Source of the DNA: a virus
Lineage: Duplodnaviria > Heunggongvirae > Uroviricota > Caudoviricetes
Virus record (IMG/VR): IMGVR_UViG_2657244961_000008
Coordinates: 1 to 43,067 of that record
Strand: one strand, 5' to 3'
Length of the DNA stretch: 43,067 nt
A model generated the notes under the pieces. It was not told the DNA's origin, made no database searches, and saw only the letters and a list, made by a program, of their open reading frames with translations. Below are positions 19,329 through 20,693 of the stretch, one piece after another (position 1 is the first letter of the stretch; each line of letters starts with the position of its first letter). The position numbers and the translations under genes are program-made.

Positions 19329-20511
19329 CGGAGGGTTTCGTGGTCATGTTCATCGGTGTGAGATAGACATCACCACCGGGACGCGGATTCATATCTTCCA
19401 GGTCGCGGCAGTCATTGGGAGAGTAAATTCCCCAGTTAATCCCGGTGGCGTAGGCTTCAAAACGGGACTTCATATCCCCGCGCAGTAACGCCCCGGCGTT
19501 AAATTTGGCGTAATAAACGCCCTGCTTACTTTTTCGTACCAGTCCGGTGTTGATCCGCTGTTCGATGCGGGTCAGATACGGCACCAGTGAATAGTTGATA
19601 AATCCGAGCCCCAGCTCTTCGATATTGTTGAAGGTGGCGCGATCGGTGTTCTGCACCATGTGCAACGGCACCCGGAACAGACGACAGATTTCTTCAAGCT
19701 GAAACTTGCGGGTTTCCAGAAACTGGCTGTCCTCGGCGTTCAGCGCCATCGACTTCCAGTCCAGCCCCATCTCAAGGATCATCGGGCGGTGAGCATTACC
19801 AAGCCCGGTGTGACGCTCCTCAAAATCTTTCTTCAGGCGCTCATAAGCCTGATCTGACAGCGTCTGTTCAGTACGCAACACACCGGACGTCACCGCACCA
19901 TTGCTGAACAGCCTGGCCCCGTGCTCTTCGGTCGCCGCTGCCAGCGATATTGCCTCGCGGGCATAGGCGACGGGATTCAGCCCCATCAGACCGTCCAGCG
20001 TCAGCGTGCGCACATGCCAGATATCCTCCTGGGTCAGCACATCCGTGGAACCGTCCGGGAATGTGACCTGATAGACCGGCTCCCAGCTACTGTTAAGCTT
20101 CGGCACCACACAGCCGGGATCGACGGGCAGCAGTTCAGCCACTTCGCCAAATGCTTTCACTTTGTAAGCATAAAAGTTTCCCCGCAGGCACAGACAGGTG
20201 ACCACCAGCTCCCAGAACTCCTGCGGCGTCATATAGCCATTGGGATGCGTGGAGATCAGCTTATGCAGACGTTCGCCGGTGGCTCTCTGTTTCAGGCTGC
20301 CGTTCAGGTGATACAGATTGCAGGGCAACATCCCGACCGACTCTGCCAGCACCCTGACGCAGGAAAAAACCGCCGTCAGTCGCATGGCCCGCTGGCTGCT
20401 GATCTGCTTTCCGGTATAGGTGTCATATGACAGCCCGATAGCATCCGCCAGTTCTGCTGGCGTGGTCACCGGCGCGTCACTTTTTCGTTGAAATAATCCC
20501 GAAAAGAACAC
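19270..20511 (-). CDS. portal protein (HK97 family)
   Basis: 413 aa, downstream of the large terminase. Confidence 0.9.
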   Translation of the reverse strand: MFFSGLFQRKSDAPVTTPAELADAIGLSYDTYTGKQISSQRAMRLTAVFSCVRVLAESVGMLPCNLYHLNGSLKQRATGERLHKLISTHPNGYMTPQEFWELVVTCLCLRGNFYAYKVKAFGEVAELLPVDPGCVVPKLNSSWEPVYQVTFPDGSTDVLTQEDIWHVRTLTLDGLMGLNPVAYAREAISLAAATEEHGARLFSNGAVTSGVLRTEQTLSDQAYERLKKDFEERHTGLGNAHRPMILEMGLDWKSMALNAEDSQFLETRKFQLEEICRLFRVPLHMVQNTDRATFNNIEELGLGFINYSLVPYLTRIEQRINTGLVRKSKQGVYYAKFNAGALLRGDMKSRFEAYATGINWGIYSPNDCRDLEDMNPRPGGDVYLTPMNMTTKPSDGSKAGKQKDNANADETTS

Positions 20512-20693
20512 TATTTACCTCCGCCGACAGACGACTGTGTACGGTCGAGATATCGCGCCACCAGCCACGACCAGAGCAGGCACAGCACCCCGGCAACAAC
20601 AAAACCCGCCGGGGGATAAATCAGCCAGGCACCATACGCCAGCAAAAGCGCACCCAGCACGCCCACCAGTGGCGCGAGAATTATCAGAAACAT
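20511..20693 (-). CDS. small two-helix membrane protein, function unknown
   Basis: 60 aa, almost entirely hydrophobic. Wedged between TerL and portal, with its stop overlapping the portal start. Confidence 0.45.

Follow-up and report, generated by a model that had tools for sequence, protein, structure and literature searches.

A YmfR-family membrane hairpin encoded between the large terminase and portal genes of HK97-type phage head modules, and its possible link to the portal

The stretch of DNA analysed here, positions 1 to 43,067 of the IMG/VR virus record IMGVR_UViG_2657244961_000008 (Caudoviricetes; hereafter the window, meaning all of its 43,067 nucleotides (nt)), contains a small open reading frame (ORF) of 60 codons located between the gene for the large terminase subunit (TerL) and the gene for an HK97-type portal protein. 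A first-pass annotation had described this small ORF as encoding a hydrophobic, two-helix protein of 60 amino acids (aa) at positions 20511-20693, wedged between the TerL and portal genes and sharing a stop/start overlap with the latter. This description is borne out at the same coordinates on the minus strand: the ORF begins 11 nt after the TerL stop codon, and its own stop codon has one base in common with the portal start codon (TAGTG). The gene is already known; it has been named ymfR and is uncharacterised, and the earlier reader did not recognise the name. The features that make up the junction are the following.

20705-22462, minus strand: TerL gene (PF03354 and PF20441; phrog_9), with its stop codon TAA at 20707-20705
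20705-20760, minus strand: last ~18 codons of TerL, which switch together with the small ORF and the portal gene (window compared with SfII, L001, and Evi, L002)
20694-20704, minus strand: 11-nt spacer CCGAGGTCATT from the TerL stop to the ATG of the small ORF, read from the sequence and kept in relatives
20702-20699, minus strand: GAGG ribosome-binding site of the small ORF, inside the spacer, 5 nt before the ATG
20511-20693, minus strand: small ORF of the ymfR type, ATG at 20693-20691, 60 codons and TAG at 20513-20511 (from the ORF list, phrog_502 and the match to K-12 YmfR)
20518-20522, minus strand: GGAGG ribosome-binding site of the portal gene, within codons 58-59 of the small ORF
20509-20513, minus strand: TAGTG, the overlap of the small-ORF stop and the portal GTG with one common base, read from the sequence
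19270-20511, minus strand: HK97-type portal gene with a GTG start (PF04860, E = 2e-107)

Several results make it almost certain that the small ORF is a genuine gene of the YmfR family. Over residues 1-55 its product matches phrog_502, labelled "membrane protein" (E = 7e-27), and 55 of its 60 residues (92%) are identical to those of YmfR (b1150) of prophage e14 of Escherichia coli K-12. In the case of K-12, ymfR lies in a defective prophage and is flanked by pseudogenes, a truncated terminase and a truncated portal gene, whereas both neighbours are full length in the window. The homologs in the phages ST64B (Sb3), SfII (SfII_03), SfI and phiP27 (L37), which are annotated as "putative integral membrane protein", and e14 ymfR itself have the same position between TerL and portal as the window gene, and the same two-helix hairpin is predicted for all of them; the window gene differs in being paired with a TerL type that is ~37% identical to that of SfII, phiP27 and ST64B. 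In phage phi467, the DNA of the small ORF is 99.7% identical to that of the window. There are 167 close homologs, nearly all of 60 aa, and the identical protein is found on about a thousand contigs. A search of the complete E. coli genomes located the junction in 1382 of 5426, and the RefSeq label of the gene in E. coli genomes is "ymfR: protein YmfR" or hypothetical protein. Sequence searches of Pfam, NCBIfam, PDB and PADLOC, the last being a library not aimed at exclusion proteins, returned no significant relative of the small ORF, and a tblastn search of the window protein against isolated phages gave a match through its second half only.

A reading frame in a short intergenic gap might also have arisen by chance and not be a gene, and the small size of the ORF, the lack of a Pfam or NCBIfam family and the missing annotation in the record of phage SfIV could be cited in favour of this reading. 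We give it next to no credence, since by sequence comparison it is in practice already refuted. The 99 related loci comprise 47 distinct ORF sequences, of which the 40 that are 183 nt long and start with ATG are all open. Comparison of the TerL-portal junction in relatives, which had been put forward as a check, found it coding and in frame and not disrupted, and a ribosome-binding site, looked for at the small ORF, is present (GAGG). A second copy in Shigella flexneri CP182557 (L097; 4691271-4697449) is frameshifted by 1 nt within its first third and is the sole disrupted copy among the 99 close loci. The Nei-Gojobori ratio of nonsynonymous to synonymous substitutions (dN/dS) is 0.25-0.33 against the Mangrovibacter and Citrobacter copies, at a dS of 1.0-1.3, where synonymous sites are near saturation; pooled over all pairs, it is 0.31 for the codons of the membrane core (1-47) and 0.95 for those of the tail (48-60). 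Judged by these ratios, the small ORF is under purifying selection. The conserved start codon and ribosome-binding site, the 460 clusters that the family comprises at 50% identity (see below), and the fact that the gene callers of independent sources predict the small ORF likewise speak against a chance origin.

The start codon, the ribosome-binding site and the 1-nt stop/start overlap are kept in the copies of Escherichia, Shigella, Mangrovibacter, Scandinavium, Citrobacter and Serratia. In the junction alignment, the portal genes of relatives start with ATG at the position of the GTG of the window, and TAATG or TGATG replaces the TAGTG overlap. The ribosome-binding site of the portal gene is retained as GGAGG or GGGGG in relatives whose small-ORF tails otherwise differ, and because these codons spell that site, the small protein ends in Gly-Gly in nearly all relatives. 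In a diverse set of 80 viral contigs, retrieved through the small protein and examined for their flanking genes, the portal start and the small-ORF stop have 1 nt in common in 48 loci and 4 nt in 15, and a 4-nt overlap joins the small-ORF start to the TerL stop in 31.

The protein is hydrophobic over residues 1-47 (mean Kyte-Doolittle value 1.90), and AlphaFold2, run on a 31-sequence alignment, predicts helices at residues 2-24 and 27-57 with a mean predicted local distance difference test score of 71. Its parts map to the window as listed here.

20622-20690, minus strand: predicted first transmembrane helix, residues 2-24, with G11, G14, L17, L18, G21 and W23 invariant (alignment, AlphaFold2 and hydropathy)
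20607-20621, minus strand: tight turn IYPPA, residues 25-29, predicted to be periplasmic and part of the most conserved 12-residue stretch of the family
20553-20606, minus strand: predicted second transmembrane helix, residues 30-47, with G30, G35, C38, L39, W41 and S42 invariant in the enterobacterial subfamily
20514-20552, minus strand: short, variable tail, residues 48-60, predicted to be cytoplasmic; its last codons hold the ribosome-binding site of the portal gene

Within the Enterobacterales, M1, G11, G14, L17, L18, G21, W23, I25, G30, G35, C38, L39, W41 and S42 are invariant and P27, P28 and A29 nearly so, and the consensus of the wider family reads G-x2-G-x2-L-x-SYGAWLxYPPAGxIVxG. In 61 distinct members, the mean number of Lys plus Arg residues is 1.84 for the N-terminal tail and 1.44 for the C-terminal tail, compared with 0 for the turn. 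Since both tails carry these residues and the turn has none, the positive-inside rule places both ends in the cytoplasm and the turn in the periplasm. The members of the family are thus predicted to span the membrane twice, with a very tight turn linking the two helices and both termini in the cytoplasm. Together with the conservation pattern, this topology would locate the most conserved part of the protein within the membrane and on the periplasmic side of it. Both cytoplasmic tails are short and vary in sequence, the N-terminal one being absent from the subfamily of the window; the features that typify the family (a size of 45-80 aa, two helices and a YxPAG-type turn) are all present in the window ORF. 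Four family matches of 102-122 aa (P0154, P0165, P0166 and P0213) match the profile twice, which suggests that they are tandem-duplicated versions with four helices.

The family is large, and its place in the genome is nearly fixed. A profile search of 1.84 billion representative proteins yielded 460 clusters at 50% identity (E ≤ 1e-3), nearly all of 45-80 aa; a distant subgroup comprises at least 1357 clusters at 90% identity, all of 48-102 aa, with sources that include a Sphingomonadales metagenome-assembled genome (MAG), a Gammaproteobacteria MAG and ocean samples. All 59 aligned diverse members match PHROG 502 and none of them matches a Pfam family. In the diverse set, each of the 59 distinct downstream genes encodes a PF04860 portal; these portals are only 25-35% identical to one another, while the upstream gene encodes TerL in 48 of 50. 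According to local profiles, the portal gene starts no more than 400 nt downstream in 78 of 79 loci, and for 68 of 74 the end of TerL lies no more than 400 nt upstream. The other six lack TerL directly upstream but still have the small ORF adjoining the portal gene, and L104 is the only diverse locus with a gene between the two. The small ORF lies between TerL and portal in all of the 99 close loci as well. It should be noted that these were retrieved through the ORF itself and therefore demonstrate constant position, not constant presence.

Sequence comparison further indicates that the small ORF is inherited with the portal gene and the last ~18 codons of TerL, and not with the rest of TerL. 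In close relatives, the small ORF is 55-100% identical to that of the window and is always accompanied by a portal of 71-99% identity, while the upstream TerL is of two types, ~99% or ~36% identical to the TerL of the window. The TerL of SfII is 37% identical overall to that of the window, yet it ends ...LSDHIESYGIRSL. The reverse case is phage Evi, whose TerL is 99% identical to that of the window over residues 1-567 and then entirely different, ending ...GVNDFLSTLDPDEDLLIL; its portal is 29% identical to that of the window, and it carries a different, 53-aa member, phrog_7105. Thus, the TerL tail follows the type of portal and not the remainder of TerL, which points to a recombination joint inside TerL, and an exchange point at this location means that the small ORF is inherited as one unit with the TerL tail and the portal gene. 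The C terminus of TerL docks on the portal in lambda and T3/T7, and a portal-linked TerL tail fits that role. Among more diverse loci, nine pairs with portals of >60% and TerL of <30% identity have small ORFs that are 43-98% identical; in three pairs with the opposite combination (TerL >60%, portal <40%), the identity of the small ORF is ~47%, compared with a background median of 48%.

The same gene order as in the window (HNH, Terminase_4, TerL, small ORF, Phage_portal, Peptidase_S78, Phage_capsid; window 17422-23444) recurs in the independent gene calls of L303-L306, which derive from the Sphingomonadales MAG (Alphaproteobacteria) and the Gammaproteobacteria MAG. In the window, the members of this packaging and head module other than those given above are the following.

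23444-23094, minus strand: HNH endonuclease gene
22944-22462, minus strand: small terminase gene, Terminase_4/P27 type
19328-18642, minus strand: S78 prohead protease gene
18627-17422, minus strand: gene for the HK97-type capsid protein

The layout makes coupled late expression of the small ORF likely. The ORF would have no promoter of its own and would be transcribed as part of a late packaging and head operon comprising the genes for HNH, the small terminase, TerL, YmfR, portal, protease and capsid; its translation would be carried out by ribosomes passing on from TerL, or by ribosomes starting at the GAGG site. Because of the shared stop/start base and the portal ribosome-binding site in its last codons, ribosomes that finish ymfR are positioned to restart on the portal gene, and under coupled translation the amount of YmfR should follow the amounts of TerL and portal. 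The first-pass annotation had suggested that the ORF may be translationally coupled cargo. The geometry required for coupling is indeed present and conserved, whereas cargo in the sense of a moron is not supported by the data: the search upstream of the ORF in the window found no usable sigma-70 site, the terminator scan found no coding-strand terminator at the ORF (fold z-score -0.8), the GC content of 0.55-0.57 across the ORF shows no anomaly against 0.49-0.62 in the flanking genes, and the position of the gene is fixed. In these respects, the ORF does not look like a moron in the classical sense. The only minus-strand promoter-like match, at 20708-20680, has its -10 element inside the ORF, which means that it cannot serve the ORF, and is probably due to chance. 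A rho-independent terminator has been annotated in the corresponding ORF of SfII (L001 2837-2886; SfII record 2370-2419); the scan and the comparison of folding with shuffled sequences do not support it in the window.

Two predicted helices with both termini in the cytoplasm are a holin-like trait, which is however common to many unrelated small membrane proteins. The window contains a complete P21-type lysis cassette, directly upstream of the HNH and terminase genes and ~3 kb from the small ORF (23487-24663, minus strand), composed of three genes.

24663-24448, minus strand: P21-type holin (PF04971)
24448-23951, minus strand: lysozyme, with an N-terminal hydrophobic stretch read as resembling a signal-anchor-release (SAR) sequence
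23966-23487, minus strand: Rz

Because of this cassette, we reject the identification of the small ORF as the holin; it matches no holin family in Pfam and is not part of the cassette. Between the cassette and a DNA methylase gene (28100-27048) lies a gene for a 402-aa DDE transposase (PF01609; read as IS10-like; 25421-26629, minus strand), and if it interrupts late transcription, the prophage may be crippled.

Some database entries concerning the family deserve correction or caution. The label "head-tail joining protein W" (ON470580, ON470584, ON470603 and PQ793804) was considered and rejected, since the ORF has no similarity to gpW, no Pfam match and membrane-like residues 1-47; being attached to a membrane hairpin without a Pfam match, the label looks like a positional misnomer. 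Lambda gpW resembles ymfR in being encoded by a small gene between the large terminase (A) and portal (B) genes. It is, however, a soluble protein acting after packaging, unlike the YmfR membrane hairpin. In SfIV (KC814930 / NC_022749), the homologous ORF at record positions 2376-2483 is intact but unannotated, and the missing gene call should be added along with the correction of the W labels. Sequences of the E. coli ymfR/portal type are also present in OR844959 ("Enterococcus phage Efm 3-10", 1764 bp) and in contig JAEWTL010000102 of a "Bacillota bacterium" MAG (L085); they are 89-95% identical to the E. coli type, by DNA or protein, and both entries likely represent contamination or mislabelling.

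Regarding the function of YmfR, our literature search found no paper. The e14 ymfR transcript rises by 4.5 log2 together with other e14 genes upon treatment with an SOS-inducing siderophore-ampicillin conjugate (PMC10012262), the ymfR locus is used as a neutral integration site, and deleting it in K-12 has no reported host phenotype (PMC9145139), and a clone overexpressing ymfR cleared the first round, but no later one, of a screen for Ala-Ala tolerance (PMC10299036). The explanation that we favour, to which we assign a probability of roughly 0.35 as a whole, is that YmfR is expressed late in step with its neighbours and acts as a portal-linked factor at the inner membrane, the latter part, which governs this figure, being a tentative proposal held with low confidence. 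YmfR could tether or nucleate the assembly of the portal or prohead, or packaging, at the membrane. Alternatively, the co-translational insertion of YmfR might draw the nascent portal, along with the coupled mRNA, to the membrane. Such a model resembles the assembly of the T4 portal, which takes place on the inner membrane with gp40 and YidC (PMC4493910), and does not involve any homology to gp40. Like gp40, YmfR would be a membrane-associated phage factor tied to the portal, a membership that rests in its case on prediction and on adjacency and co-inheritance. The two differ in that the role in portal assembly is proven for gp40 and conjectured for YmfR, and in that T4 has a different portal family and head size; no sequence relationship is claimed. 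T4 gene 40 is not known to lie next to gene 20.

A number of observations weigh against a role tied to the portal, among them the optional presence of the gene. HK97 itself has no small ORF, and its TerL abuts the portal. In an independent sample of portals, collected by the motif ETRxFQxEE(I/M) and clustered at 70% identity into 33 clusters, 18 lack a small ORF and have TerL at most 70 nt from the portal, a family member precedes the portal in 7, the slot of 2 holds a two-helix hydrophobic ORF of another kind, and the remaining 6 have larger or unresolved gaps. The expectation in the first-pass annotation that terminase normally abuts portal thus applies to HK97 and to these 18 clusters and fails for the 9 with an ORF in the slot; a small ORF at this location is a common variant arrangement, not an oddity. 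On a neighbour-joining tree of 74 non-redundant portals, presence requires 10 changes (shuffled labels: mean 20.4, minimum 15), that is, it is clustered on the portal tree, which speaks in favour of a link to the portal, although the set was enriched for carriers and the figures are indicative only. Across the deep portal phylogeny the small ORF was accordingly gained or lost about 10 times, and some portals of non-carriers are nested among those of carriers. Since many related phages do without ymfR, its product would be a helper and not an essential part. The comparison of portal N termini with and without the small ORF (L100-L301) revealed no distinguishing feature, and no fusion of the small ORF to a portal was present among the 150 and 120 homologs listed. 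At deep divergence, the rank correlations of pairwise identity are weak (0.29 for small ORF and portal, 0.13 for small ORF and TerL); this global correlation is too weak to decide, and the discordant pairs and the swaps between close relatives are more informative. Moreover, the tails, the only parts able to reach a cytoplasmic portal, are short, variable and almost neutral, and the conservation in the membrane and the periplasmic turn points towards self-association or a membrane partner. Adjacency to the portal gene could also be in part a matter of entrenchment, since ymfR shares bases with the genes on either side and holds the portal ribosome-binding site, and is therefore hard to delete cleanly.

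Side observations on the slot and on the portals may be added here. Many PF04860 portals start with a short hydrophobic motif of the MG(L/F)F type, whether the small ORF is present or not. The 53-aa ORF of Evi and orf3 of Pseudomonas phage D3 (54 aa) are both small two-helix ORFs in the same slot that overlap TerL and portal; the former is a distant homolog of YmfR (phrog_502, E = 1.3e-6; family hidden Markov model, E = 1e-15), whereas the latter is undetected by the family model (E = 0.41), lacks the YPPAG turn and could be analogous rather than homologous. In L181 (2107-2271, D3 orf3), L183 and L206, the slot holds two-helix hydrophobic ORFs of 54-56 aa that escape the family profile. It may be that the TerL-portal slot was occupied repeatedly, or that these ORFs are highly diverged members.

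[quoted passage not shown] We hold it to be nearly as likely as the portal-linked role, and thus possible but doubtful. T4 Imm, HK97 gp15 and P21 S share with YmfR their small size, their one or two transmembrane helices and an expected action at the inner membrane; in PHROGs the family is classed as "moron, auxiliary metabolic gene and host takeover", ymfR is optional among HK97-type portals, with several losses, and an accessory role would suit the pattern of conservation, which is concentrated in the helices and the periplasmic turn and leaves the cytoplasmic tails to drift, the unrelated-looking two-helix ORFs in the same slot of D3 and two sampled clusters, and the lack of a host phenotype of the K-12 deletion (PMC9145139). 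On the other hand, the gene has neither its own promoter or terminator nor an anomalous composition, and it is present in 99 of 99 close loci, albeit loci retrieved through the ORF itself. Superinfection-exclusion proteins are, as a rule, expressed early or from the prophage, outside the head operon. Exclusion genes are lineage-specific and scattered, unlike the fixed position of ymfR before portals that are 25-35% identical, and in e14 ymfR behaves like an induced gene rather than one expressed in the lysogen (PMC10012262). There is no match in PADLOC, whose library does not target exclusion proteins, and Pfam and PADLOC searches with the small ORF detected no homology to exclusion proteins or to class II holins.

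Two further readings are less likely, and we consider each of them very improbable. YmfR might influence the timing of lysis as an additional holin, as an antiholin or as a helper of the pinholin type, oligomerising in the membrane through small-residue motifs. Like class II holins, it has two transmembrane helices and both termini inside; this, the Gly/Ala/Ser spacing conserved in both helices and its late expression would agree with such a role, and helix 1 resembles the dimerisation helix of glycophorin A, with a non-significant E of 0.37 that is not evidence. However, the window phage has a complete lysis cassette elsewhere, in which the holin, of the class of P21 S, is a separate gene, no Pfam holin family is matched, the C-terminal tail is short and not highly charged, and in the diverse loci the small ORF was always seen beside the portal gene and never beside lysis genes. 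The other reading sees in the short ORF a translational device that sets the amount of portal relative to TerL, the peptide being incidental. The conserved overlaps with both neighbours, the portal ribosome-binding site in the last codons, the near neutrality of the tail codons at the protein level and the direct coupling of TerL to portal in phages without the ORF all suit such a device, but a spacer needs no two transmembrane helices, and it would account neither for a dN/dS of about 0.3 in the core nor for Gly, Trp, YPPAG and Ser positions kept across hundreds of clusters beyond what simple hydrophobicity demands.

In summary, a gene that has so far been a named but uncharacterised prophage gene appears here in a context that we did not find in the literature, namely as a member of a huge family with one fixed position before the portal gene, portal-linked inheritance and translational wiring to both neighbours. 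A wider claim, which we regard as rather unlikely, is that HK97-type head modules have in the YmfR hairpins a portal-coupled membrane component that has gone unrecognised, and that in the lineages with such hairpins the initiation of the portal or prohead, or packaging, would be organised at the inner membrane as in T4. If such a component exists, the exchangeable unit would be made up of the membrane hairpin together with the portal and the C-terminal tail of TerL, and the hairpin would accompany 7 of the 33 portal clusters in our sample, or 9 of the 33 if look-alike ORFs in the slot are counted. Through its link to the portal, a K-12 gene to which no function has been assigned becomes amenable to testing in inducible relatives, for instance ST64B, the Sf phages and phi467. 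If this link proves true, membrane-associated head assembly would extend beyond T4.

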